Part shown: positions 8,230 to 27,400 of the stretch, one piece after another
Position numbering within the stretch: the stretch's first letter is position 1
How the letters are laid out: every line of letters starts with the position of its first letter
Source: Cyanobacteria bacterium P01_F01_bin.150
GTDB lineage: Bacteria > Cyanobacteriota > Cyanobacteriia > CAKZMO01
Assembly (NCBI GenBank): GCA_039189765.1
Contig: JBCCYL010000003.1
Location: 96,001-160,000, forward strand
Length of the DNA stretch: 64,000 nucleotides
Direction of reading: 5' to 3'
Notes under the pieces: model-generated
Databases searched by the model: none
Seen by the model: only the letters and a program-made list of their open reading frames with translations
What the model was told of the DNA's origin: nothing
Translations under genes and position numbers: made by a program

Positions 8230-10494
8230 ATGACAACTACCCCACGGGAGCGAAAGGCGGAGGTAATAGTCGATAAGGATCCAGTACCTACTTCGTTTGA
8301 GAAGTGGGCAAAGCCGGGTCATTTCGATAGGAACCTTGCGAAGGGGCCAAAAACAACCACTTGGATTTGGAATCTTCACGCTGACGCTCACGATTTCGAT
8401 AGTCATACTAGCGATTTAGAAGATATTTCGCGAAAAATCTTTAGCGCTCACTTCGGCCACTTGGCAGTTGTGTTCGTTTGGCTGAGCGGCATGTATTTTC
8501 ATGGCGCTCGCTTTTCAAATTATGAGGCCTGGCTTACAGATCCACTGAGTATTAAGCCCAGTGCACAGGTTGTGTGGCCTATTGTGGGTCAGGAAATCTT
8601 GAATGGTGATGTCGGTGGTGGGTTCCACGGAATTCAGATTACTACTGGCTTTTTCCAGCTTTGGAGAGCATCTGGTATCACCAATTCTACTCAGCTATAT
8701 GCAACAGCGATTGGTGGCTTGGTAATGGCTGGCTTGATGCTGTTTGCAGGATGGTTCCATTATCACAAGAGGGCTCCTAAGCTTGAGTGGTTCCAAAATA
8801 CTGAGTCTATGTTGAATCACCATTTGGCAGGTCTGCTTGGTTTAGGTTCTCTAAGCTGGGCTGGTCACCAGATTCACGTATCTTTACCCGTTAATAAGCT
8901 GTTGGATGCGGGTGTCGCGCCTAGTGATATTCCTTTGCCTCATGAGTTTCTTTTACATAGAAGCTTGATGGCTGATTTATATCCCAGCTTTGCGAAGGGA
9001 TTAACCCCGTTCTTTACTTTGAATTGGGGAGTCTACTCTGACTTCCTGACTTTTAAAGGGGGATTAAATCCTACTACAGGTGGGTTATGGCTAAGTGATA
9101 CGGCTCATCATCACCTTGCTATTGCTGTTCTGTTCCTCATTGCTGGTCACATGTACCGCACAAACTGGGGGATCGGGCATAGCATCAAAGAAATTTTGGA
9201 AGGGCAGAAAGGTGATAAGATTCTTTTCCCTGGAAAGGGAGGCCATGACGGTCTTTATGAGATCTTAACGACTTCTTGGCATGCACAACTGGCGTTGAAC
9301 CTTGCGTTGCTTGGTTCTCTGACCATAATTGTGGCTCAGCATATGTATGCAATGCCGCCCTATCCTTATTTGGCTACTGATTATCCCACCATGCTGTGCT
9401 TGTTCACTCATCACATGTGGATTGGTGCATTTTTAATCTGTGGTGCGGGTGCTCACGGAGCAATCTTTATGGTTCGTGACTACGACCCTGCTCAGAATGT
9501 GGATAATGTCTTAGACAGAGTATTGCGTTCGCGCGATGCGATTATTTCCCATTTGAACTGGGTTTGTATTTTCCTCGGCACCCATAGCTTTGGTCTATAC
9601 GTGCACAACGACACCATGCGTGCATTGGGTCGTCCTCAGGACATGTTTTCTGATACGGCGATTCAGTTACAGCCAGTATTTGCTCAGTGGATTCAAAGTA
9701 TCCACAACGTAGCGCCTCTTGGTACAGCTCCAAACGCATTGTCGTCTGTTAGCCAGGTCTTTAATGGTGACGTAGTTGCCGTCGGTGGTAAGGTCGCCAT
9801 GATGGGTATGCCTTTGGGCACAGCCGATTTCATGGTTCACCACATTCATGCCTTCACGATTCACGTTACTGTTTTGATCTTGCTCAAGGGTGTACTTTAT
9901 GCGCGCAGTTCTCGTCTGATTCCTGATAAGGGTCAGATTGGATTCCGCTTCCCTTGCGACGGTCCTGGACGAGGTGGTACTTGTCAGGTATCCGGTTGGG
10001 ACCATGTGTTCCTAGGCTTGTTCTGGATGTACAACTCTATTTCGGTCGTAATTTTCAACTTTAGTTGGAAAATGCAATCGGACATTTGGGGCACTGTTAA
10101 TCCGGATGGATCTATTGCGCACATTACTGCTGGTAACTTTGCTCAAAGCTCAATTACCATCAACGGTTGGTTGCGTGATTTCTTGTGGTCCCAAGCTGCA
10201 AACGTTATCAACTCATACGGATCTCCATTGTCTGCCTACGGCATCATGTTCCTTGGTGGTCACTTTGTATGGGCCTTCAGTCTTATGTTCCTGTTCAGTG
10301 GTCGCGGCTACTGGCAAGAGCTGATTGAATCTATTGTTTGGGCGCATAACAAGTTGAGACTCACGCCTGCTATACAGCCCCGTGCAATGAGTATTACTCA
10401 GGGCCGTGCGGCAGGATTAGCACACTATCTCCTCGGAGGGATTGTGGTGACGTGGTCATTCTTTATATGCCGAATAATTGCAGTTTCTGGATGA
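8230..10494 (+). CDS. psaA: Photosystem I P700 apoprotein A1
   Basis: FX motif [31 protein letters not shown]; 754 aa; GAGGAG RBS. Confidence 0.99.
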
Positions 10495-10520
10495 GCCTGA
10501 CGAGGACCTAATTAAGACTT

Positions 10521-12719
10521 ATGGCAACTAAATTTCCAAAATTTAGCCAAGCCCTCGCCCAAGATCCAACGACTCGGCGGATCTGGTACGGGATTGCCAC
10601 TGCTCATGACTTTGAGAGTCACGACGGCATGACAGAAGAAAATCTTTATCAAAAGATTTTTGCTTCTCACTTTGGCCATCTGGCAATCATTTTCCTGTGG
10701 ACATCTGGCAACCTGTTTCACGTTGCTTGGCAAGGTAACTTTGAACAGTGGATTCAAGATCCTTTACATGTTCGTCCCATCGCCCATGCGATTTGGGATC
10801 CCCACTTTGGTAAAGGCGCAATTGATGCTTTTACCCAAGCAGGTGCTTCTGGCCCTGTGAACATTGCTTACTCTGGTGTGTACCATTGGTGGTACACCAT
10901 TGGGATGCGAACAGATGGTGACCTCTATGCAGGCTCCCTCTTCCTGTTGGTGCTGTCTACCCTCATGCTTTTTGCAGGTTGGTTGCACCTACAGCCCAAG
11001 TTTCGTCCAAGCTTGTCTTGGTTCAAGAATGCTGAATCCCGTTTGAATCACCATTTGGCTGGTTTGTTTGGTTTCAGCTCCATTGCTTGGACTGGTCACT
11101 TGGTGCACGTAGCTATTCCTGAGGCTCGGGGTGAGCATATCCGTTGGGGTAATTTCATTGCTCACTCCCCTCACCCTGCTGGGTTGATGCCATTCTTCAC
11201 CGGGAACTGGGGTGTGTATGCGAGAAATCCTGACACTTTAGAGCATGCGTTTGGTACTTCTGATGGTGCGGGTACTGCGATTCTTACCTTCTTGGGTGGA
11301 TTCCATCCCCAAACCGAAGCTTTATGGCTGACGGATATTGCCCATCACCATTTAGCCATTGGTGTTCTGTTTGTTATTGCTGGTCATATGTACCGGACAA
11401 ACTGGGGCATCGGTCACAGTATCAGAGAAATCTTAGATAGCCACATTCCCCCAAGCGGTAAGCTGGGAGCGGGTCATACAGGCTTGTATGATACTCTAAA
11501 CAACTCCTTGCACTTTCAGCTTGGATTGGCACTGGCCAGTTTGGGTGTGATAACCTCTTTGGTTGCCCAACACATGTATGCTATGCCCTCCTATGCCTTT
11601 ATTGCTAAGGCCTACACGACTCAAGCTGCACTTTATACTCATCATCAGTATATTGCTGGCTTCCTAATGGCAGGTGCTTTTGCTCACGGTGCCATCTTTT
11701 TTGTACGGGATTACGATCCTGTGGCTAATAAAGATAACGTGCTGTATCGGATGCTTGAGCACAAAGAAGCGATCATTTCCCACTTAAGCTGGATCTCTTT
11801 GTTCCTCGGATTCCATACTTTAGGGCTGTATGTGCACAATGATGTTGTAATGGCCTTTGGGACTCCTGAGAAGCAGATTCTGGTAGAGCCTGTGTTCGCT
11901 CAGTGGGTGCAAGCGGCTTCTGGTAAGGCGCTGTATGGTTTTGAGATTTTATTGTCTAATCCTGACAGTGCTGCTAATGGTGCGGCTGCTTGGCTACCAG
12001 GTTGGCAAAATGCTATCAATAGCAATGGCAACTCTTTGTTCTTGACTATTGGGCCTGGTGACTTTTTGGTTCACCATGCGATCGCTCTAGGGTTGCACAC
12101 CACTACTCTTGTTTTGGTCAAAGGTGCTCTGGATGCTCGTGGTTCTAAGCTGATGCCCGATAAGAAGGACTTCGGTTTTAGCTTCCCTTGTGACGGCCCT
12201 GGTCGTGGTGGTACTTGTGATATTGCTGCTTGGGATGCTTTCTACCTAGCCATGTTCTGGATGCTCAATACCATTGCTTGGCTGACCTTTTACTGGCATT
12301 GGAAACACTTGGCAGCATGGTCTGGTAATGTGGCCCAGTTCAATACGTCTTCAACTCACTTGATGGGTTGGTTCCGAGACTATCTCTGGCTAAACTCTGC
12401 CCAGTTAATTAATGGATACAACCCATTTGGGGTAAATAACCTTTCTGTTTGGGCTTGGATGTTCCTATTTGGACACCTTGTTTGGGCGACTGGTTTTATG
12501 TTCTTGATTTCCTGGCGTGGTTACTGGCAAGAGCTAATCGAAACGATTGTTTGGGCACACGAGCGTACTCCCCTAGCGAATCTTGTTCGTTGGAAGGATA
12601 AGCCTGTTGCATTGTCTATTGTTCAGGCCCGCTTGGTTGGTTTAGCTCACTTTACCATCGGCTTTTTCTTAACGTATGCTGCATTCTTGATTGCATCGAC
12701 CTCCGGTCGGTACGGCTAA
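10521..12719 (+). CDS. psaB: Photosystem I P700 apoprotein A2
   Basis: [10 protein letters not shown] start, [25 protein letters not shown]; 732 aa. Confidence 0.99.
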
Positions 12720-13530: not shown

Positions 13531-13749
13531 GCTTGACTCTGACAAAAATTCAGCTGTGGATTACGCTGTCGCGTTTCTTTTATGCTCCTTGGGCTATATC
13601 CACCCTCTTGCTCCGGCTCCCCCAATCCAAAATCCAACATCTAAAGTCCGGTGGGCGATCGCTTTTGGTAGATAGAGGCGATACGTGCAAAGCACAGACA
13701 ATCCAACGCCATTTTGGCATTTGGATGATGAATCTGTCAGGTTTGTAGA

Positions 13750-13787
13750 TCGCGTAGGGTGTGTGTAGGCGACAGCCGTAACGCACC
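13750..13787 (+). repeat. GTAG-type REP-like element, copy 1
   Basis: tcgcGTAGggtgtgtgtaggcgacagccgtaacgcacc. Its reverse complement matches 21375-21412 at 37 of 38 positions. Confidence 0.85.
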
Positions 13788-13792
13788 GATAT

Positions 13793-14575
13793 TTAGCCAA
13801 AGCCGCCCAAAGATGTTTGGCTAAAGCTGCCTGCGCTTTGGCTGGCTCGTATAGCCGATTGGGAAAATATTTGAAACGCCTGACGAATATCCTTTTGGCT
13901 ATTACCCGGTGTCAGAATCCACTCATCGCGAATCCCCATTGCCCGAAATACATGATGGAAATCCGTTTGGCCATCATCAATGCCCATGCCCGCAACAATA
14001 TGATTTTCACTGCGCAACATAGCCTCCACCAGCGTTTTCACCTGTTTCGCCGTAGCCCGACTAGAGCCATCCGCCCCATCAGTAATGATTAAGGTTACCG
14101 TCCGTACTGGAACACCATTATCGTCAAACTCTTGAGTCTTCGCCAGCACCGTCCCCAGTAGCACCAGCGTTTGTTCATACAGCGGTGTACCTTTGTTGGG
14201 ATTGTAATTTTGGCTGTCCATCCGCACCGCCTGCTTGACCGGGCAGTAGGGATATAGCACCGCTCCGTTTAAATAGCGATTGTGTACCAGAATATTGTCC
14301 TGTTGTTTGGAAGTCGCCAACGCATCCAGAATTGTATTATGTCCGGCTCGCACCACCGCACTATTGCCTGAAAATTTAATCGACCCGGAATCATCCGGCA
14401 TAATCGTCATCAGCACCACTTCACTGGACATCACATCATCCACATGAATACCCAGCCCGGCCTGAATTTGGGCACCAATATCCACCACATTAAGCGCCTG
14501 CATTGACGCATTCGATAATAAACCATCCTCATGGGCAGTCTGAAACAGATTATCGATATTAGGAGTTGAAGTCAT
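13793..14575 (-). CDS. vWA-domain protein (TerY-like)
   Basis: MIDAS DDSGS (DxSxS), GTPLY and LIITDG motifs; GGAGAA RBS. Confidence 0.82.
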   Translation of the reverse strand: MTSTPNIDNLFQTAHEDGLLSNASMQALNVVDIGAQIQAGLGIHVDDVMSSEVVLMTIMPDDSGSIKFSGNSAVVRAGHNTILDALATSKQQDNILVHNRYLNGAVLYPYCPVKQAVRMDSQNYNPNKGTPLYEQTLVLLGTVLAKTQEFDDNGVPVRTVTLIITDGADGSSRATAKQVKTLVEAMLRSENHIVAGMGIDDGQTDFHHVFRAMGIRDEWILTPGNSQKDIRQAFQIFSQSAIRASQSAGSFSQTSLGGFG

Positions 14576-14903
14576 TGAAATTCTCCGAATTTTAGATTTT
14601 GGATTTTGAGATTACTGTCAAAAAATGCACGCAGAAATCCTGTGATGCGATAAGCCAGAGACCATGAGTGGCAGACCCTCACCGCACCTTAATTAATTGA
14701 ATGAACCCTTAAAGCCCTGAACGATTCTCTCCAACTCCCCTTAATCAAGCAGGGAATTCAGCTGAGACGTTCGGCGATCGCTCAGCCGAGCCGCTCACAT
14801 CGAAACCTAGCCCCCTCTCAAGCCAGGAAATTAGACATTTACAGAAAAAGACTACCGAATATTCACAGCAAATGGAGGTCAAGTGTTCCTGCTAATGACA
14901 CGT

Positions 14904-14932
14904 TCCCCTCCTGGGAGGGGCTAGGGGTGGGT
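14904..14932. repeat. Small cyanobacterial intergenic palindromic repeat
   Basis: cccctcc-tg-ggagggg hairpin followed by ctaggggtggg, inside the 540-nt spacer of the operon. Confidence 0.55.
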
Positions 14933-15115
14933 CTGATCGACACGCTAAACACATACCGCTTTTTAAGAGAGATTGAAGGGGATCTCTTCCCTTGTTTCCA
15001 GTGTCCCGCAGAAAAGCCCATCTGAGACTCTGCCTCAGACAAGATAGCGGAGCCAGAGTCTCCTGAAAGAGCACCCAGCCAGAGTCTGGGCACCAGGAAT
15101 TTTAGATTTTGGATT

Positions 15116-16159
15116 TTAGCTTAGCTCTATCCCTGGCCAAGTCTCGATCGCATCTATGGATTGCACCACCTTCATTCCCGCATCAGCAAATCGCTGAAAC
15201 GCACCATCTGCCTGATCCGTAAAGTCCACCACCCCCGGCACCACCACTGGAGACGTACAGTCCTCCAGCAGGTAGACTTTTTGGGCTAATGCCGGATCTT
15301 TGGCCTGAATTTCCGTAAGCAAATCATCGATTGTCCATGCGACACAGTGGCTCTTAGCCTGTCCCGCGATAATCACCGCATCAAAGTCCAGAAGCTTTTG
15401 GATAAAGCGAGTATTCTTCTGGGCAATGGGCCGACCATCGGGACCGTCTAATACCTCTGGTCGCAACACCGAGTAGTTTTCCGTTAAGGGGTTGCCGCCT
15501 TTGACCTCAAAATTTGTTTGGCTATTACGAGCCAGATTATGGAAAAAGCACGCTTCCTCCACCGCTGACACCAGCGCGTAGCTAATGCCCCCCAGCATGG
15601 CATGATAGGGCCAAATGGTCAGGGGATATTTGCCATCTTCACTCAGGCGCTTGGCATAGTGGAGAGCAAAGGATTGCAGCGCCATATAGTTGCCGTTGGC
15701 AATGCTGTAGGCGATCGCCGGATTGATTTTCCAGCGTCCCTGCTGCACATCATCCAAATCAATCATAGTTAGCGGTGCCGGATTTTCTCCCGCATCGTTA
15801 ATCCAAAAATCGCTATGGAAAATCTGCATCGCCGTATGGGTATCCAGCGTCGGCGCAATTTCCGTTATCATCCCCAAATTACGATAGATAAATTCGCACA
15901 GCCGCACATTATCCTCCACTGCCCCCGTCCCCGATCGCCCCCCAACAAATAGCTCAAAATCGGGAATACAGAACGTATTTTGGGCATCAATAATCATCAG
16001 ACAAATGCGGGTTTTATCCTTAGCAGCAGGGGGTAGCTGATGCTGCTTAGCCCACTGTTTGGCCTGGCCTGCTCTCTCTTGGTAGGGGACGCGCCACACT
16101 TCACCAACGCGGGTGCGATCAAAATGGGTAGGAATAGGAAGCTGGGTCAAGGTAGTCAT
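15116..16159 (-). CDS. Nicotinamidase-like (isochorismatase/cysteine hydrolase family) protein, long form
   Basis: Catalytic Asp in IIDAQNTFC, metal motif TLDTH, IWPYHAM, Lys in EVKG, nucleophile Cys in AGQAKSHCV. Start ATG 16159 after GGAGAA. Confidence 0.85.
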   Translation of the reverse strand: MTTLTQLPIPTHFDRTRVGEVWRVPYQERAGQAKQWAKQHQLPPAAKDKTRICLMIIDAQNTFCIPDFELFVGGRSGTGAVEDNVRLCEFIYRNLGMITEIAPTLDTHTAMQIFHSDFWINDAGENPAPLTMIDLDDVQQGRWKINPAIAYSIANGNYMALQSFALHYAKRLSEDGKYPLTIWPYHAMLGGISYALVSAVEEACFFHNLARNSQTNFEVKGGNPLTENYSVLRPEVLDGPDGRPIAQKNTRFIQKLLDFDAVIIAGQAKSHCVAWTIDDLLTEIQAKDPALAQKVYLLEDCTSPVVVPGVVDFTDQADGAFQRFADAGMKVVQSIDAIETWPGIELS

Positions 16160-16172
16160 AGCGTGTTCTCCG

Positions 16173-18140
16173 TTAGGTAAGTTGAAGTTGTTGAATGTGG
16201 TGGGCACTGACAGCGTAAAGACCAGAGGTCGCTGGCAGCAGACGACAGCTTGAATCTACAAAGGGTTCAGTGTCCGGAAATACCTTAGTTTGCATTAGCT
16301 GATCGTTTTGGCGGTCGATACGAATAATTCCTGTATCGGTGGCCGCCAGCAGAAAATCATTGACGGCATAGAAGGGACAAGGATCGATAAATAATGCTTT
16401 GGAATCGCCCAAATGTGCCAACCAATGCTCCAATCCTTGAGACGCTTTTGTTTCAGCCAGGACTGTACCGTCAGCATTAAGAACGATGCAGCGGTAGTGG
16501 ATCTGCCCCTGCTCCTGGGTAATTAAAAATAGCCAGCCACGGCTCGACTTTCGCACCGCTGAGCGGTTAAAACCGCAGGTGGCGTGAATCAGCGCTCCCT
16601 GCCATGTCGGAAGCTGGACCCGGTCGTTAATCCCAGGACGCTCCCCATCAAAGACAAACGCAACGGTTAATTCCCCTGCCTGATAAAAACCAAAGCCAAA
16701 GCGATCGCCCACCCATATTTGCGTATGTCCCCCTGGCAAGACCGTCCCCATAACTATGCTGCTGTCCTGAGCGATCGCGACTGATGTCTGCATCTGATTG
16801 CCCGATAACTGACGCCGCAATAGTTGTCCTTGATTGATCCAGTATTGGGATTGGGAATTTACGTCAAACTGGGCGATCGCGCCGTAACTCTCTACGGCTA
16901 AGCGGGACTGCGGTGAGACCAAACAAACCACCTGTCCCTGTTGACCAATAAGCGTAGTTCCACCCTGAATTCGCCAGCGGAGGTTGGGCATTAAAGAACC
17001 ATTTAGCAACACCGTGCCATCCTCTCGCTTAAACGCATCCTGCTCCCAATAGATCCAAGACAGCTTTCCAGCCTCAACCGTAGCCGATAAGATAATACCT
17101 TCGGTGGTAAAAACAGGCGTAACGGTAACATTCCCATAAACCGTTTCCGTTGGTATGGCGGACGCTTGACGAGACGCCTGAATAGGTGAAGACACCGTGC
17201 AGTTAGGACAGTGCGATCGCGCATGGTCAATCCCGCAGGTGGTGCAGGTGGTCCACCGAAGGCTTTCGAGGAGCGATCGCGGCAGCATACCCCGCCAATC
17301 CTGTTCAAACACTTGATGAAAATGCTGCAAGAGTTCATCCGGCAGGCAGTCGTACGGTAAAGCAGGCTTGGGATAGCGCACCTCTGGGTGAAACACAGTA
17401 ATCCGCTTCAATGACCGGGCACTTTGGGGAACGCGCTGACTTTTATCCTTGGGTTTATGCACACCACCATAAGGATCGACAAACAACAAACACTGCATCA
17501 GCATTACCGAAAAGGCATACCAGTCGGATTCCACCGTATGGGACTGCTGTAGTATCGGTTGATTCGCATCAGGGTCACAAAGTAACGGATCGACAAAGCG
17601 GGCCGTAAACATAGGACAGGAAAACGCTCCAAACTGAAAGGAATCGGTATCAATAATGTACGCTGACCTATCCTTGACCAGCACGTTTAAATCATTAAAA
17701 TCGCCAATTACAACGTTCTGCTGATGTAGCTGGGTGATAGTGCGGTGCAAATCCAAGAAGATATCCACCACGGTTTGAGCCGCAATCCCCTGGCGGAAAG
17801 CGCGATCGCCATACCTCAACAATACCTCCGTATCCTTTACCAACGGCATGGTGTAGCCTAATATCTGCCGCTCTCGCTTATCCATCGCTAACTCTTGGGG
17901 ACTAATCACTCGTTCCGGTAAGCCCACCGGAAACTGACGGAGCTTTTGCTGATGCTGGCGGAGGCGATCGCGTGCGGCTTGCTGAGCCTCTGGCATCCCC
18001 GCAAAGTCTGGGTGGTCAGGGGGCTTAAAGACCTTTATGGCGCGATCGCGTCTCCATTGAAAGACGTCTGCTTCTCCTCCCTTGCCAATGGCATTTTTTG
18101 CAGTGAGCCGAACTTTTTGCTGATTAACGTAAATATCCAT
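16173..18140 (-). CDS. Ser/Thr protein kinase (YegI/TerY-P type) with CxxC-CxxC Zn ribbon and beta-rich C-terminal domain
   Basis: IGKGGEADVF, AIKVF, catalytic loop IGDFNDLN, IDTDSF in place of DFG, DWYAF; CTTC...CPNC. Confidence 0.88.
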   Translation of the reverse strand: MDIYVNQQKVRLTAKNAIGKGGEADVFQWRRDRAIKVFKPPDHPDFAGMPEAQQAARDRLRQHQQKLRQFPVGLPERVISPQELAMDKRERQILGYTMPLVKDTEVLLRYGDRAFRQGIAAQTVVDIFLDLHRTITQLHQQNVVIGDFNDLNVLVKDRSAYIIDTDSFQFGAFSCPMFTARFVDPLLCDPDANQPILQQSHTVESDWYAFSVMLMQCLLFVDPYGGVHKPKDKSQRVPQSARSLKRITVFHPEVRYPKPALPYDCLPDELLQHFHQVFEQDWRGMLPRSLLESLRWTTCTTCGIDHARSHCPNCTVSSPIQASRQASAIPTETVYGNVTVTPVFTTEGIILSATVEAGKLSWIYWEQDAFKREDGTVLLNGSLMPNLRWRIQGGTTLIGQQGQVVCLVSPQSRLAVESYGAIAQFDVNSQSQYWINQGQLLRRQLSGNQMQTSVAIAQDSSIVMGTVLPGGHTQIWVGDRFGFGFYQAGELTVAFVFDGERPGINDRVQLPTWQGALIHATCGFNRSAVRKSSRGWLFLITQEQGQIHYRCIVLNADGTVLAETKASQGLEHWLAHLGDSKALFIDPCPFYAVNDFLLAATDTGIIRIDRQNDQLMQTKVFPDTEPFVDSSCRLLPATSGLYAVSAHHIQQLQLT

Positions 18141-19065
18141 AATTTTTCCTCATCACTACCAACGTCGTGTCGTCTGGCAGCAATCCTCCAGTTTTAATAA
18201 GCTGTTGGCTAGCCCAGTCTGGCGTTGTCCGCTCACGATTAATTAGGGCCAACCGTCGTCGAACCATGTCAGGATTTTGAAAGTAGCGATCGCCCTGCCA
18301 AAACTGACTGAGATCGCCAATCGGTTCAGGGTTATTCGATAGTTTGCTTGGAAGTGAATGAGAAGCGATTGCCCTCAGATCCTCTACGCCATCGCTACCA
18401 ATCAGAATCGATCGCACCTCTGATGTTGGCGCTTGATAATGCATGGCAAATTGTAGTTTTTCAGGGATAAAGGATGTGTAGCCTTCCGGCATCAGACCAT
18501 AGGCTAAATAAGGCGGTGCATTATTGGAAAATGGCCCAATGGAGAACACGTCATCATTGACGGCAAAGACACCATCGCCGACCCCAAACACAAGGGTTGT
18601 CTCAGGAGTCATAACGGCCCCAATGACGGTGAATAGTAAATAGGATTGAATAATTGACCAGTTGGTGATGTCAGATGAGGACGGCTGGAGGGTCGTAATC
18701 AGCGATCGCATCTTTCCCAACACATCCTGCTGTACCCGACGCCATAATTGAGGGTCTGTAATATCAGCACGAACTTGGAGCTGGGCAGCAACGGCATTTA
18801 CAACCCACTTTGCGCCTAACCTTGCGCCGACCTCGCTAAAGGGACCGCTCCCACAGCCATCACAGACAACGGCGATCGCCCCGGTATTTCCTGCTTGCTG
18901 CGGATAACTAGATGACTCGACACTGTCTTTATCTTCAATCGTCGGCAGCTCTAAATAACGCCAGGCAAATGCGTCCTGATTATTCTGGCCTTTACGTCGA
19001 TGGACGTGCCCCTGGACAGAGCCAGCGGCAATCTCAATATGTTGTTGAGTAGGGTGCTGCTGCAT
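18124..19065 (-). CDS. PP2C-like protein phosphatase (PP2C_2/YegK type)
   Basis: GSVQGxxH...NNQDAF, VVCDGCGS, GVGDG, GSDG, DDTT motifs. Overlaps the kinase start by 17 nt. Start ATG 19065 after GGAG. Confidence 0.88.
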   Translation of the reverse strand: MQQHPTQQHIEIAAGSVQGHVHRRKGQNNQDAFAWRYLELPTIEDKDSVESSSYPQQAGNTGAIAVVCDGCGSGPFSEVGARLGAKWVVNAVAAQLQVRADITDPQLWRRVQQDVLGKMRSLITTLQPSSSDITNWSIIQSYLLFTVIGAVMTPETTLVFGVGDGVFAVNDDVFSIGPFSNNAPPYLAYGLMPEGYTSFIPEKLQFAMHYQAPTSEVRSILIGSDGVEDLRAIASHSLPSKLSNNPEPIGDLSQFWQGDRYFQNPDMVRRRLALINRERTTPDWASQQLIKTGGLLPDDTTLVVMRKNYGYLR

Positions 19066-19087
19066 AGGAATGCGGCTCCTTTTTGAA

Positions 19088-19149
19088 TAGTGTAAATAAA
19101 ACACTTATCCCGACGCTTCCATGTTAGTGTTCAAAATACACTATGTCAA
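19088..19149 (-). promoter_or_regulatory. Sigma70-type promoter with two NrtR-like operators
   Basis: Minus strand TTGACA (19149-19144)-17 nt-TAACAT (19126-19121). Palindromes TAGTGT-N7-ACACTA (19125-19143) and TAGTGT-N7-ACACTT (19088-19106). Confidence 0.78.
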
Positions 19150-19224
19150 GATAGAGTTTTGCTATTCCTCTGTTAGAAGTCTGTATGCGTTGAAATAATT
19201 GGGGGATAGCCTATAGGTTTAAAT

Positions 19225-20292
19225 TTAAGAGACCAGAATATGGCCCATGCAAAGTCCAATCAGCAGACCAACAGCAGCACTGATAGCAAAGACTTGACTT
19301 CTTGCCCGCTGCGTATATCCCAGAGTTTTCATTTCAACCCAGCCAATTGCCCCTAATCCAAGTCCTCCGATGCCCAAAAACAGCAAAATAGCCATGGGAA
19401 AACGACCAGACACAATTACCGTACGGCCATAGCCCGCAAACAGCCAGTTGGCGCTACTAATGAAAAGAGTTGCAATTCCTGCGACCCATAAGCTGTCAGA
19501 CAAGGCTTTGCGCCAAGACCACCCTAAAAATTTCAAACTGACGATAAGGGTTAACAGGACCAACCCAGCAAACAACAGCGCCCAGAGAGAAAGGCCAATA
19601 CTGACTAGGGTGGCGATCGCACCACACACTGGCAAAAACCAAACCAGCGCCTCATCCCAAGCCACAATCAAGGCACTACTCCAAACCAAAAGTCCTGCCC
19701 CCACTCCCGTCTGATATAGTCCCAGCAAAATTCCCAAACACACATACCCCAGGATTAATAGTGCGAGAGGAGGGCGGGGAAGTTTTGTCCAGTGCTGTAA
19801 AGTAAGACGAGTGTAAGCAGGAGTAGCGAGAGTTTGTGGCCGCGAAAGCGTTACGGAAGCTGGGATCTGGGATCTAGGCAATGTAGCTTCAGGGTTATCA
19901 GGCACAGGAGTAGACAACGGGGTTGCAGTTGATTCTACGACCGGGATTCTTAATTCATCAGGGCGTACAGCCTCGGGTAAGTGCTCAATATCACTCGGCG
20001 AAAATTGAGCACCGTCTAATTGTGCCTGCTCCCAAACAATGCCCTCCAACTGGGCACCACGAACGTTGGCCTTTTTTAGATTGGCTCCCGTGAAATTTGC
20101 GTGGCTGAGGTTTGCTTTATACAGATTAGCGGTGAAAAGATTGGCCTGTTCAAACTGAGCATGGGAGAGATTGGCTCTGCTAAAATCGGCCCCCACCAAC
20201 TCTGCGCCTCTTAAATCAGCGTGACGTAAATCGATCCATTTAAAATTGCGCTTGCCCGTTTTATACAAGTCTAAAAATTCCGCCACATTCAT
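19225..20292 (-). CDS. Pentapeptide-repeat protein with multi-TM C-terminal domain
   Basis: A(D/N)LxxA pentapeptides (ADLRGAELVGADFSRANLSHA...), a Pro-rich linker and several hydrophobic helices. Confidence 0.88.
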   Translation of the reverse strand: MNVAEFLDLYKTGKRNFKWIDLRHADLRGAELVGADFSRANLSHAQFEQANLFTANLYKANLSHANFTGANLKKANVRGAQLEGIVWEQAQLDGAQFSPSDIEHLPEAVRPDELRIPVVESTATPLSTPVPDNPEATLPRSQIPASVTLSRPQTLATPAYTRLTLQHWTKLPRPPLALLILGYVCLGILLGLYQTGVGAGLLVWSSALIVAWDEALVWFLPVCGAIATLVSIGLSLWALLFAGLVLLTLIVSLKFLGWSWRKALSDSLWVAGIATLFISSANWLFAGYGRTVIVSGRFPMAILLFLGIGGLGLGAIGWVEMKTLGYTQRARSQVFAISAAVGLLIGLCMGHILVS

Positions 20293-21422: not shown

Positions 21423-24400
21423 CTAGACAAAGTCAGCACTGGTGATTTGGTTTACGTCAACTCCGACTAGAATAGCGACTTGATTTTGTCCTTGGGACAG
21501 GATGGTATTGTTGCCCTCTTGAGTCAGGGTGAGTTTATTAAATTTAACGCCTCTCAGCAAATCAGTGCCATCTTGGAATTTGCGAATGGTATCGGGTCCT
21601 CCCTTCTTAGAAAGAACGAAAATATCCTTTCCTCCGCCACCAATTAGCAGGTCTTCCCCTTTACCTCCAACTAATTTATCGTTGCCGCCGCCCCCTTTAA
21701 GAACATCGTTGCCCTTACCGCCTTTGAGAGTGTCATTACCGCCGCCGCCGATTAGGACATCGTCTCCATTGCCGCCCTTAAGATTGTCTCGACCCTGGCC
21801 ACCTACTAGACGATCGTTGCCGTTAAAACCCAGCAATTTATCGTTCCCTCCTTGTCCTTTAATCGTGTCGTTAGCATCGCTACCGACTAGGCGATCGCCA
21901 CTGGCACTACCCACAAGATCTAAGGAAGCAGAAGCACCATCATCGCTTTTAGGGGTAAGAACATCCGTTGAGGTATCCAGGTCATTAGCGGTTGGAGATG
22001 TCGTTGGTGTAGTCGGCGTTATTGTGGCCGTATCATCACTGGGAGTCGTTGTCGGCGTTGTCGGCGTTGTTGTTGGCGTTGTTGTTGGCGTTGTTGTTGG
22101 GGTGGTTATGGGAGGCGTTACTACGACCGGAGCCTCTGCGATGGTGAGAACCATCTGGTTGGCCACGCTTAAGCCAGCTCGGTCTGTGGCCATAACCTCA
22201 AGCGTTAGCTGTCCTACATCACTATCTGTGGGGGTACCGCTAAAGGTTTGGGTATTTCCATTGAAGACTAGCCAACTGGGCAAAGCTGCACCGTTGGATT
22301 GTTTTGCACTAAAGGTTAGGCGATCGCTTGGGTCCACATCTGCAAACGTACCGTCAGGCACAGTCGCCGTAAAGGCAACGGTTGCGGTGGCAGAGGCATC
22401 GGCCAGAGGACTGGCGACAGTGGGGGCATTGTTGGCAATCACATTCAGTTCAAAGGTGTCTTCTGTGGATTGATTATCTTGGTCCGTGGCGGTAACTGTC
22501 ACCCGAATGGTTCCCACATCGCCATCGGTGGGTTGACCACTAAAGGTTTGGGTCATGACATCAAAGGTAAGCCAGCCGGGCAAAACGCTGCCATCGTCAA
22601 GATTTGCCGTATATGTCAATTGATCATTAATATCCACATCTTGGAACGTAAGCGGGTCAACGGCCATATCAAAAGTGGCTCCAGCGATCGCCACCTGGTC
22701 GGCCAGCGGATTGATAGTGGTAGGCGCATCGTTTAATGGTTCCACCAGTAATTCAAAGGTTTCTACTGTGGACACGGTACCATCACTAACGCTAACGCTA
22801 ATGGTGGCTGTACCGACCTGATTAGATTGTGGCGTGACGGTAAGAGTACGACTATCACCACTGCCAGTTATAGCAAGTCCATCCACTGTCACTAGATCGG
22901 GATTTGAAGAGGTAGCAACAACCGCAAGCGCCCCAGAGGGGGTTTCAGTATCGCTCAAATTGTTAATCTCAACAGTGACGCTGGTGTCCTCATCAAGGGT
23001 TTGGTCGCTGATGGCATCCATTTGAGGCGCATCATTGCTTGCAGCAACAGTGACATCAAACTGGGTAGAGACCTCATCGGTGCCATCACTGGTAGTAACG
23101 GTGACAGTCGCACGTCCTGACTGGTCCGCAGCAGGGGTAATGGAAAGGCTGCGATCGCTCCCCGTCCCGTCTAAGACCAAACCGGATTGGGGCAATAACG
23201 CTGAATCGGACGAAGTAACACTTACCGTCAGATTGTCAGGATCGAGTTCTAAATCATCCAATCGAATGGCGATCGCATCAATCACCCCATCTTCATCCAC
23301 CGTCTGGTCGGCGATCGCCTCGATCATTGGCACATCATTTACGGCTTCTACATCCACCGTAAAGCTATCGGTAGTGATATTTGTGCCATCATTTACCGTT
23401 ATCGTTAGTGTCGTTGTGCCAAAGGCATTCGCGACAGGTTCCAAACTGAGAGTGCGATTTTCGCCATTGCCGCCAAGCATAATATTGGCATCGGGCAAGA
23501 GCCCAGGATTGGAGGACGTAACCGTCACCAGCAAGTTGTTGGCATTAGTTTCCAAGTCGCTAACTGTAAATGGAATATTGGTAAGGGGGGTATCTTCTAG
23601 TGTTGTTTGGGCGATTGGAACCTGTAGCGTTGGCGCATCATCAACCGGATCAACAACAACATCAAAGATTTGGGTGGCGGTAGCAAAGCCATCACTGAGG
23701 GTAAGGGTAATGGTGCTGGAACCAATAGCATTGGCGCTAGGAGTAATAGATAGAGTGCGATCGCTGCCTGAGCCTTCCACCACAATATTATTGACGGGAA
23801 TCAGTTCAGGATTGGAGGACGCTGCCGTAATCGTCAACGCTCCCGCTGGGCTTTCCACATCAGATACTTGAACCGAAATATTGGTAAGGGATGTATCTTC
23901 CGCCGTGCGTTGAGTGGCGATTGGCCCTAAAACTGGCGCATCGTTATCCGGCACCACCGTAATTTCAAAGGTTTGGGTAGAGATATTGGTGCCGTCGCTA
24001 ACCTTTACGGTAATTTCAGTGGTGCCAAACTGATCGGGGGCAGGCAGGATCGTCAAACTGCGATTGGCGGTTGTCCCAGTAATCGTGATATTTTCGTCAG
24101 GAATCAACACCGTATCGGTGGACGTAGCACTGACCAATAAGGCACCAACTGGGTTGTCAGAATCCGCAACCACAAACTCAATGGGGGCAGAAAGCGTATC
24201 TTCTAAGGTGCTCTGTGCATCAATAACCGACACAATGGGCGCATCGTTATCGGCTCCAACGGTCACAGCAAAAGAGGTCTCTGTGGTTTTATCTCCATCA
24301 GTGACCATTAGGGTAACAGTGGTGCTGCCGGACTGATCAGCCTCTGGGGTAAGCACTAGGGAGCGACTAGTGCCAGTCCCGCTGATAGCGATGCCGTTGG

Positions 24401-27400
24401 GCGTCAGCAGATCTAAGTTAGAAGAGGTCGCAGTAATGCTTAACCCGCCGATGTCGGAGTCAATATCATCCACGGTAAAGGGAATGGCATTGGAAAATCC
24501 ATCTTCAGAAATCGCCTGATTGGAAATAGTTGAGATGCTGGGAGCATCATTGACGGGAGTAACCGTTAACTCAAAGTCTTGGCTGCTGGATGTAATTCCA
24601 TCACTAACCGTCACGGTAACCATGGTGGTTCCAGATGCATCTTCGGCTGGAGTAATGGCGATCGCCCGTTCACTGCCCGTGCCCGCAATGGTAATATTTT
24701 CGTCCGGAACCAAAGCACCGTCAGCCGCTGTGGCCGTAACGGTAAGCTCCCCAGCGCTATGGTCAAGATCAGAGATGGTAACCATGATTGGAGAAGTTGT
24801 GCCGTCTTCTGCAACCGACTGATCTGCTATTACAGATAGGGTAGGAGCATCATTTTCAGCAGCGACAATCACCTCAAACATCTCAGTTGTTGTAATGTCG
24901 CCATCGTCCACCAAAAGAGTAATAGTAGCCGTGCCGCTGCTGTTGCTGACGGGAGAAATGCTTAGGGTGCGGTCATTTCCCCTACCGCCAAGGATAATTT
25001 GGCTGGAGGGAATTAAAGCCGAATTGTCAGAGGTGGCCGTAACCGTGATCGCCTCAGCATCCGTTTCCAAATCATCAACGGTAAAGTTTAAGGCTGCAAC
25101 GGTGCCATCTTCTGCAATTAGCTGGTCGGCGATCGCAGTAATCGTCGGCTGATCGTTGACTGCATTGACAACCACATCAAAGGTCTGGGTGACGGTGGCT
25201 TCTCCATCATTAACGGCAATAGTAATCGCCGTAGTGCCGGACAAATCGGCATTGGGAGTAATAGTTAGAAATCGCTCGCTGCCTGTGCCCGTAATGACAA
25301 TATTGTTGTTGGGGACTAAGGTGGTGTTAGAAGACGTAGCCGTGACCAGTAGGTTTTCCGCTGCCGTTTCAATATCACCAATGGCGATCGCCAGCCCGTC
25401 TATGGGAGTGTCCTCATCGGTTATTTGGGTGGCGATCGCCGCTAACGTGGGTTGATCATTATCAGGGACGACCACAACTTCAAAGGTCTCTTCTGTCAGT
25501 AGGCTGCCATCATTGACGCCAAGGGTAATCATGGTAGTGCCAAATTGATTCACCGCAGGGGTGACGGTGATCGTCCGATTTGCGCCGTTGCCACCTAGGG
25601 TAATCGCGCCATTGGGAATCAGCGCTTGATTGGAGGATATAGCCGTAACCACCAGGTCTTCAGTTAGGGTCTCCACATCACCAATGGTAAAGCTGATCGC
25701 CTCACTCCGGCTATCTTCGACGATGATCTGATTGCCAATGGAGCTGAGGGTCGGTGCATCATTCTCCTCTCCCACTGACAAATTAAAGGTTTCCGTTATC
25801 CGATCAACCCCATCGTTAACGGTGATAGTGATAATAGCTGAACCAGAGGTATTGCTGGCAGGGTTTAGGGTCAGCGTTCGATCTTGACCCGAACCGCCTA
25901 GAACAATGCCATTAGCTGGCAGTAAATCGGGGTTGGAGGATGTCGCGGTAATGATTAGACTATCCGGAGCCGTCTCCACATCACTAACGCTAAAGGTCAG
26001 CCCTGAGACCGTCTCGTCTTCTCCGATCGCCTGGTCTTCAATGGCCGTAATCGTGGGCAAATCGTTTTCGGGAGAGACAACCACATCAAAGGTTTGAGAA
26101 ACCGTATTATTTCCGTCATCCTCTAGCTGAACCGTAATGGTTGCCGTGCCAAAAGCATTGGCCACAGGGGTAAAGGAAAGCGTTCGAGCGGTACCGCTAC
26201 CGCTGACCACAATGGCGTCATTGGGCAATAGATCCGTATTATCTGAACTCGCGGCAATGGTGAACAAACTGGTGGGAGTATCCACATCATTGACGCTAAA
26301 AGGAATGGATACCGTATTGCTATCCTCCAAAAGCTGCTGGTCGTTAAAGATGGACAGCACAGGGGCGTCGTTTTCTGGAGCTACCACTACATCAAAGGTC
26401 TCGGTAGTAGTGTTCAGCCCATCTTCAACCGTTACGGTAATCGTGGCGGTGCCAAACTGATCGGCGGCGGGGGTAATGGTTAGGGTGCGATCGCCCCCAA
26501 TCCCCGATAGCTGAATATTGTCGTTGGGAATCAGGGTTGTATCAGAGGACATGGCCTGAACCGTCAACGTGTGAATGGCATCATCCACATCATCGATTTG
26601 AACGGCGATCGCCTCCGTTACCCCATCTTCAGCAATTGCCTGGTCGCCAATACTGCTAATAGTAGGGGCATCGTTTTCCGGCGATACGGTGACGCTAAAG
26701 GTCTCAGTGGTGGTGAGGTTTCCATCCCCCACAGTAATCGTAATATCGGTAGTCCCCGTTTGATTGGCTATCGGATCAATGGTGATAGTGCGGCTATCTC
26801 CCGTCCCCGTGGCCACTAAGCTATCCACCAGCGTCGTATTGGAGGAGCTAACGTTAACAGTTAACGTATCGCTGGCGGTTTCAGCATCACCAATGGTAAA
26901 CGTAAAGGCATTATTGGTGCTGTCTTCAAGGATGACGCGATCGCTAACCGCACTAATGGTGGGGGCATCGTTTTCTGGATCGACCGTAACCGTAAAGGTT
27001 TCTTCAGTTGTGTTTTCCCCATCCGTAACGCTGAGGGTAATTATGGCAGTCCCTGACTGATTTGGCTCAGGGGTGATAGAAAGGGTTCGAGCGTCGCCAA
27101 ACCCCAGTAACTCAATATTGTCATTGGCAATCAAAGCCTGATTATCCGAGACAGCGGTGACCTGGAGAGCAAGGGACGGAGATTCAATATCACTGATGGT
27201 AAAGGGAATCGCCGTAATTGCTGTGTCTTCCGTGGTTGTTTGATCGCTAACGGCATTGATAGTGGGAGCATCATTATCAGGCGTTATGGTGACATCAAAG
27301 GTCTCCGTAACGGCATCAGCGCCATCATCCACTGTCAGAGTAATCGTGGCCGTGCCGTATCCATCGGCGGCTGGGGTCACGGTGATGGTGCGATTCTCCC

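Follow-up and report, generated by a model that had tools for sequence, protein, structure and literature searches.

The stretch of DNA analyzed in this study (hereafter the window) comprises 64,000 nucleotides (nt) of contig JBCCYL010000003.1 from Cyanobacteria bacterium P01_F01_bin.150. At 13793-19149 on its minus strand, the open reading frame (ORF) listing contained a quartet of genes encoding a PP2C-type Ser/Thr phosphatase, a YegI-type Zn-ribbon kinase, a hydrolase of 347 amino acids (aa), and a vWA protein. We consider it fairly probable that this operon specifies a nicotinamide-salvage enzyme that is repressed by NrtR, and by homology responsive to ADP-ribose, and that is gated by a phosphorylation switch similar to the TerY-P triad. 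The original prediction for this locus had joined a TerY-P-like triad to NAD/ADP-ribose metabolism via a nicotinamidase, and this proposal gains support from the predicted operators, the gene neighbors, co-inheritance, and the modeled fold and active site of the hydrolase. The four genes were confirmed to be real and conserved, not chance ORFs, and homologues at E ≤ 0.001 amounted to at least 8000 proteins for the hydrolase and 2523 of 3266 scored candidates for the vWA protein.

The gene encoding the PP2C-type phosphatase (18124-19065; longest ORF, 18124-19104) is followed on the minus strand by those encoding the kinase (16173-18140), the hydrolase (15116-16159), and the vWA protein (13793-14575). 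The junctions described in the original prediction were exact to the coordinate: the genes are co-oriented, PP2C and kinase share 17 nt (18124-18140), the ATG of the hydrolase at 16159 lies 13 nt past the kinase stop codon (16175-16173), and a repeat-filled spacer of 540 nt (14576-15115) separates the hydrolase from the vWA gene. The catalytic motifs, which had been described as intact, are conserved in 14 orthologues (PP2C and kinase), 12 of 12 homologues (hydrolase), and 39 of 39 sequences (vWA). Translation of the PP2C more likely starts at the ATG at 19065, giving a protein of 313 aa, than at the GTG at 19104, because an AAGGAG box precedes the ATG and the GTG lies inside an operator.

Among the promoter-like sites at 13600-19400, the best was a candidate sigma-70-type promoter, TTGACA-17 nt-TAACAT (19121-19149, minus strand), which matches 10 of 12 positions; the end of the feature at 19149 is the first base of its -35 box. 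The total of seven promoter-like sites in the region was not above that of shuffled sequences (mean 6.9). Two NrtR-type operators were predicted here, operator 1, AGTGTTCAAAATACACT (19126-19142), which occupies the spacer between the -35 and -10 boxes, and operator 2, AGTGTAAATAAAACACT (19089-19105), which lies just downstream of the promoter and before the PP2C start. Both are exact copies of the palindrome AGTGT-N7-ACACT, derived from the divergent nrtR|PP2C intergenic regions of 10 relatives, where it is usually doubled and abuts a TTGACA box. The only two exact sites in the window are those in the operon promoter, and the 10.64-Mb genome contained eight, including these two. Paired operators at the same position were found in L006, L011, L013, L015-L017, L037, L073, and L093, and the motif and its layout recur at the first cassette gene in relatives.

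The genome also encodes an NrtR on contig C28 (3541-4248), which is 72.6% identical to a cassette-linked NrtR and is located downstream of serA-prmA, beside an AAA ATPase and a NaeI-like restriction/C5-methylase pair. A second NrtR paralogue was identified in a classical pncB-nadD-nrtR operon (C67:20261-23061). The locus thus combines predicted palindromic operators over a promoter with an NrtR gene in the same genome, as in an NrtR regulon. Among the unlinked hydrolase genes, an operator with at most one mismatch was found upstream in 2 of 58 loci, so the lone hydrolase mostly stands outside this operator type.

The hydrolase gave no sequence match in Pfam, NCBIfam, PADLOC, or the PDB. When a profile of 41 diverse members of its family was used, the five best PDB matches were nicotinamidases, including yeast Pnc1 (2h0r, E 9.9e-8). 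Residues D58, K220, C272, D106, H108, and H186 align with positions 8, 122, 167, 51, 53, and 94 of the 2h0r alignment, which we take to be the catalytic triad (D58/K220/C272) and the Zn ligands (D106/H108/H186) of Pnc1, and all six are kept in the 12 homologues compared, five viral ones included. The AlphaFold2 model built from the 41-sequence alignment reached a pLDDT of 96.7. A Foldseek search with this model gave 106 matches at E ≤ 0.001; ranks 1-15 were all nicotinamidases, and the best match, 2wta, had an E value of 2.6e-12 and a template modeling (TM) score of 0.78 when target-normalised and 0.50 when query-normalised. These results support a nicotinamidase-like fold and active site. An earlier model from 20 close orthologues (pLDDT 63.9, weak fold matches) was superseded by the 41-sequence model.

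In a tree of the hydrolase built with a quick method, the sequences follow taxonomy, and linked and unlinked copies interleave, which argues that they are not two paralogue families. Long forms of ~600 aa (P0243, P0247, P0250, P0252, P0256, and P0280) consist of the long nicotinamidase and an N-terminal domain of ~240 aa, which has no Pfam match and is dissimilar to the vWA protein, NrtR, and the glycohydrolase. In P0340, the hydrolase domain is duplicated in tandem.

The PP2C matched PF13672 (PP2C_2) with an E value of 4.8e-19, and its Asp set (D31, D69, D164, D225, and D298/D299) is kept with at most one exception across 14 orthologues. These orthologues, compared for both the PP2C and the kinase, derive from cyanobacteria, a sister class, metagenomes, and phage contigs. 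Residues 13-318 of the kinase align with E. coli YegI (BLASTP, E 1e-9), and its Pkinase score (5e-4) is below the Pfam cut-off. The kinase domain covers approximately residues 1-290 and is followed by a Zn ribbon (C299, C302, C311, and C314) and a C-terminal domain of 330 aa. The G-loop, K36, D147, N152, and D164/D166 are invariant or have one exception across the orthologues, and the Zn-ribbon cysteines are kept in them. Many positions of the 330-aa domain are likewise conserved, and this domain had no match in Pfam, the PDB (sequence search), or the Atlas.

The vWA protein of the window matched no Pfam, NCBIfam, or PADLOC model. Its metal ion-dependent adhesion site (MIDAS) motif, D61-x-S63-x-S65 with T130 and D166, is complete and invariant in 39 of 39 sequences from two clades. 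The protein is 33% identical (E 1.4e-35) to the vWA protein of G144, a genome of another class with an identical protein labelled Candidatus Sericytochromatia bacterium, and the relatives of the G144 protein carry PF00092 and the JGI name YegL. Comparison with E. coli YegL by hhalign gave an E value of 9e-4 and a probability of 23% with the MIDAS in register, and the nearest Atlas cluster was 'VWFA domain-containing' (score 0.98). Because neither the hydrolase nor the vWA protein matches a hidden Markov model (HMM) of Pfam, NCBIfam, or PADLOC, their identities rest on model, profile, and transitive evidence.

The distribution of the genes was examined in a sample of 151 genomes of the phylum Cyanobacteriota. 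The vWA protein and the kinase were each found in 5 of 151, the same five genomes, and kinase, hydrolase, and vWA genes are contiguous in all of them. A scan of metagenomes with vWA proteins of the G144 clade yielded 23 loci, of which 16 have the hydrolase directly before the vWA gene and the other seven have less than 265 nt of upstream sequence; the full order PP2C-kinase-hydrolase-vWA was present in 10 of the 23 and NrtR in six. No kinase or vWA gene of the cassette family without the hydrolase was found in the 151 genomes, the informative metagenome loci, or the viral loci. The co-occurrence on which the original prediction depended therefore holds: the hydrolase accompanies kinase and vWA in all five genomes and all seven phage contigs, and it stands directly before the vWA gene at each of the 16 informative metagenome loci. 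The hydrolase lies between the kinase and the vWA gene in every copy examined except L125, which has the order vWA-PP2C-kinase-hydrolase.

The hydrolase alignment was also used to retrieve 80 genomic loci, in which the neighbors were identified by tblastn and clustering. Of these loci, 18 have the vWA gene directly downstream, 13 have the kinase, and 12 have the PP2C. Eleven of the 80 contain a divergent NrtR regulator (NUDIX and NrtR winged helix), and 10 contain an ADP-ribosylglycohydrolase gene (PF03747) between PP2C and kinase. Genes of NAD metabolism adjoin several relatives: the order is PP2C-kinase-hydrolase-vWA-NrtR-PncB-Prs in G144 and NAPRTase-NadE-PP2C-kinase-hydrolase-vWA-NrtR in L116, and in L117 an NAD kinase and PncB stand beside hydrolase-vWA. 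Recurrence with NUDIX/NrtR and pncB genes, which had been set beforehand as a test, was therefore positive, with divergent nrtR, glycohydrolase, and pncB, prs, nadE, or NAD kinase genes as neighbors.

Several variants of the cassette were observed among relatives. Reduced forms without kinase or vWA keep the operators (G043:C1:2504561-2506432, L025, L037, and L073), with the layouts nrtR|hydrolase alone, nrtR|PP2C-hydrolase, and nrtR|glycohydrolase-hydrolase. Two tandem ADP-ribosylglycohydrolase genes lie between PP2C and kinase in L013 (5923-7451) and L017 (5838-7366); L017 is a Pseudanabaena locus, and L013 groups with Pseudanabaena in the hydrolase tree. Locus L006, labelled as an Actinomycetota metagenome-assembled genome, has a typical cyanobacterial cassette, with hydrolase and vWA proteins 81% and 74% identical to those of the window, and clusters with cyanobacteria in the hydrolase tree; it is probably a mis-binned contig, judging from these sequences.

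The copy in the window is distinct in that the operators are kept though nrtR has moved away, the glycohydrolase is absent, and repeats split the hydrolase from the vWA gene. No ADP-ribosylglycohydrolase orthologue was found in the window locus or elsewhere in its own genome, where the best matches have 24-27% identity. The spacer is filled by a dispersed-repeat insertion (14587-15117) with a 510-nt unit and perfect 21-nt direct repeats at its ends (14587-14607 and 15097-15117), and the 21-nt duplication overlaps the stop codon of the hydrolase. At least two families of dispersed repeats, each present in tens of copies, make up the insertion, and blastn gave 220 matches genome-wide. Without the insertion, the distance between hydrolase and vWA genes would be ~30 nt, and the spacer ranges from 15 to 750 nt in the measured cellular and metagenome relatives.

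In the mechanism that we propose, a repressor bound to the two NrtR-type palindromes seen in the promoter sequence (19149-19121) would block RNA polymerase. ADP-ribose, a product of NAD+ cleavage, loosens the hold of NrtR on DNA, and Rodionov et al. 2008 (PMC2330246) describe operator binding and its release by ADP-ribose for Synechocystis Slr1690 and Shewanella SO1979, not for the C28 paralogue. By this family-level precedent, ADP-ribose would loosen the NrtR encoded elsewhere, on contig C28, and the operon should thus switch on during NAD+ consumption. The hydrolase would deamidate nicotinamide to nicotinate, as its fold, its active site, and the neighbors of its relatives suggest, and nicotinate would feed PncB, encoded in the pncB-nadD-nrtR operon of the same genome (C67), and return to NAD+. 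The kinase, PP2C, and MIDAS-bearing vWA protein would form a reversible switch of the TerY-P type gating the enzyme or a partner, as their co-inheritance and spacing suggest, with the conserved C-terminal domain of the kinase as the likely sensor.

Several observations weigh against this proposal. PF00857 did not match the window hydrolase at E ≤ 10, and only three of 18 family members scanned matched it, P0340 over the cut-off (8.7e-11) and P0250 and P0328 below it. The hydrolase was found in 42 of the 151 genomes, 37 of them without kinase or vWA, and all five genomes with an unlinked hydrolase that were checked directly lacked the vWA gene, indicating that the switch is dispensable for the enzyme. 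A search for cassette-specific hydrolase residues, such as a phospho-site or interface, found none across clades (K47, M55, G222, and R243 only within cyanobacteria), so that nothing marks the enzyme as a phospho-target. The repeat insertion contains a terminator-like hairpin (15043-15017) and may partially uncouple the transcription of the vWA gene at this locus. The upstream region of pncB in the same genome contains no AGTGT-N7-ACACT site, and the two NrtR paralogues may therefore read different operators. The PADLOC check suggested in the original prediction came out negative, as neither the window proteins nor those of G144 matched the TerY-P HMMs at E ≤ 1; in a control with E. coli YegL, PphC, and YegI, only YegL matched TerY (E 0.032), so these models, which largely miss the E. 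coli triad, are narrow. Two further points, the ~130 residues by which the hydrolase exceeds the matched PncA structures, which could mean a change of substrate, and the patchy distribution and phage carriage of the cassette, which fit a role in conflict as well, are weighed below with the explanations that they favor.

The cassette was also found in viral genomes. Seven IMG/VR contigs of 41-266 kb were recovered in a viral scan, and kinase, hydrolase, and vWA genes were present in all of them; two have direct terminal repeats and a CheckV completeness of 100%, and the flanks are phage-like, with a Dda-like helicase, an intein-bearing ribonucleotide reductase, and an RNA ligase. On the phage contig L122, an NAPRTase gene lies directly upstream of the PP2C gene. 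In a quick tree, the viral vWA proteins cluster with the cyanobacterial clade and are separated from the Sericytochromatia/Myxococcota-type clade (SH-aLRT 100), and none of the four window proteins had a PHROGs family at E ≤ 1e-5. An NrtR-type palindrome, AGTGTTATAAGTACACT, was observed ~70 nt before the hydrolase gene on two phage contigs (L119:2573-2589 and L120:4303-4319); the phage cassette may be wired to the host NrtR, or the palindrome may be there by chance.

These viral copies, together with the presence of the cassette in just 5 of the 151 genomes, favor an explanation in which the same chemistry serves another selective purpose, the cassette being chiefly a weapon in NAD-centred conflict between phages and hosts. 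In phages, NAD+ would be rebuilt from nicotinamide released by NAD-depleting immunity; in cells, the cassette would act in ADP-ribose-triggered recovery or, with the glycohydrolase of its relatives, against ADP-ribosylation, while kinase, PP2C, and vWA sense or gate the attack. Phage defence by TerY-P-like modules (Gao et al. 2020, as cited in PMC11090510) and the predicted action of systems with an ADP-ribosylglycohydrolase (ARG), a Nudix transcription factor (Nudix-TF), and a vWA protein against ADP-ribosylation (PMC9503650) also agree with such a role. However, vWA and hydrolase are highly conserved, with 70-93% and 76-88% identity among the 120 best matches of each, unlike fast-evolving defence genes. 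The locus stands beside psaA/psaB (8230-12719), the Pfam scan showed no mobile or defence genes around it, its genome lacks a glycohydrolase orthologue, and the cassette includes no nuclease or other effector. PADLOC gave no TerY-P or other match, but its models fail to detect the E. coli triad as well. We regard a mainly conflict-related purpose as possible, but doubtful.

It is also conceivable, though improbable in our judgment, that the substrate of the hydrolase is another amide, such as NMN, nicotinamide riboside, NAD+, or an ADP-ribose-related compound, and that the triad controls that reaction. The additional ~130 residues, the lower TM score when query-normalised, and the failure of PF00857 to detect the hydrolase would be accounted for in this way. 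The genome furthermore contains six canonical PF00857 proteins, which could include an ordinary PncA. On the other side, the six residues aligned with the Pnc1 triad and Zn ligands are all kept, nicotinamidases, rather than other cysteine hydrolases, make up the top 15 structural matches, and relatives adjoin pncB, which needs nicotinate. Incidental adjacency, that is, an ordinary salvage enzyme inside a TerY-P triad regulating a non-NAD process, would agree with the lone hydrolase in 37 of the 151 genomes and the lack of cassette-specific residues, but is highly improbable given that the kinase-hydrolase-vWA order is kept over two deep clades, several phyla, and phages, that the whole unit lies under common NrtR operators, and that no cassette-family kinase or vWA without the hydrolase was found in the genomes, informative metagenome loci, and viral loci compared.

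We therefore continue to favor the NrtR-repressed, phospho-gated nicotinamide-salvage enzyme. In bacteria, NrtR, NiaR, and NadR are known to control NAD+ salvage transcriptionally. If our proposal is true, a kinase/phosphatase/vWA set travelling with a nicotinamidase would represent a new, post-translational layer of control on NAD+ salvage, and the poorly understood TerY-P/YegI-type triads would gain a concrete and testable metabolic partner. A bolder extension, which we put forward tentatively and consider unlikely as a whole, is that the cassette is a mobile, phospho-gated module for restoring NAD+. It might provide jumbo phages with a fourth, deamidating route that, with PncB, escapes NAD-depleting immunity, and bacteria with an NrtR-held recovery circuit triggered by ADP-ribose, the vWA protein and kinase holding the nicotinamidase inactive as long as no NAD+ cleavage is sensed. 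Because complete jumbo-phage genomes carry the cassette, it is linked to the contest between phage and host over NAD+, in which a deamidating route for rebuilding NAD+ can be tested.

The surroundings of the operon were also inspected. The region 13793-19149 contains 13 HIP1 sites and the window 82, consistent with the long cyanobacterial residence that the original prediction had read from their number, and no compositional break was found across the locus. A gene encoding a pentapeptide-repeat protein (19225-20292), the C-terminal half of which is hydrophobic by eye, lies directly upstream of the operon, and a terminator-like hairpin (19246-19230) overlaps its last codons. This gene appears to be a unit separate from the cassette, and tblastn did not find it conserved beside the cassette in the hydrolase loci compared. 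Two genes upstream of the operon, an ORF of 2763 aa occupies 21423-29714 on the minus strand.

Among known systems, the TerY-P triad is closest in its regulatory part. According to PMC11090510, the triad consists of a vWA protein, a PP2C, and a kinase with a Zn ribbon, and the same source, with reference to Anantharaman et al. 2012, presents such triads as presumed phosphorylation switches. A vWA protein with MIDAS, a PP2C-like phosphatase, and a kinase with a C-terminal zinc ribbon were all identified in the window, and the cassette shares with TerY-P and E. coli YegL-PphC(YegK)-YegI the MIDAS vWA, the PP2C_2 phosphatase, and the YegI-type kinase with Zn ribbon in one operon. It differs from a unit of these three genes by the nicotinamidase-like gene between kinase and vWA, and also has NrtR operators and an extra conserved C-terminal domain of 330 aa in the kinase.

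The cassette likewise resembles the NrtR regulons of NAD salvage in its Nudix-type repressor, palindromic promoter operators, and nicotinamidase-type enzyme, and in the pncB, nadE, or prs neighbors of its relatives. The cyanobacterial regulon type is #pncB-nadD-nrtR-nadE, and nrtR-pncA-pncB is also described (Rodionov et al. 2008, PMC2330246); the pncB-nadD-nrtR operon on C67 corresponds to the cyanobacterial type in Table 1 of that study. In contrast to the cassette, the cyanobacterial entries of Table 1 include no kinase, phosphatase, or vWA genes, and the word 'phosphatase' is absent from the main text. Compared with PncA and Pnc1, the hydrolase has the same fold and, by alignment, the Asp-Lys-Cys triad and the Asp-His-His metal site, but it is 347 aa long instead of ~180-235 aa, has no PF00857 match, and in its cassette form is always accompanied by kinase and vWA.

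The ARG-centric systems, for which section 3.8 of Iyer et al. 2022 (PMC9503650) predicts a function of ARG, Nudix-TF, and vWA against viral ADP-ribosylation, are similar in that relatives of the cassette unite an NrtR-like regulator, an ADP-ribosylglycohydrolase, a phosphatase, and a vWA protein. However, the phosphatases named in that study are of the rhodanese, calcineurin, HD, and HAD types, its text is free of the terms 'PP2C', 'PncA', and 'nicotinamidase', and the components in section 3.8 include no protein kinase. The glycohydrolase, the core gene of these systems, is absent from the window locus, and the cassette proteins evolve slowly. The phage pathways NARP1-3 (Adps/Namat, Nampt/Nmnat, and PnuC/NadR-like enzymes; PMC13464706) are comparable as phage-borne genes that restore NAD+ from breakdown products, but contain no nicotinamidase or kinase/phosphatase/vWA set, and 'PncA', 'PncB', and 'vWA' do not occur in the available text of that source. 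No description of the cassette was found in the literature searched, a search outside of which lay Anantharaman et al. 2012, Gerdes et al. 2006, and the supplements of PMC2330246. Taken together, the cassette resembles the TerY-P triad and the nrtR-pncA-pncB regulon at once, and is a plain member of neither.

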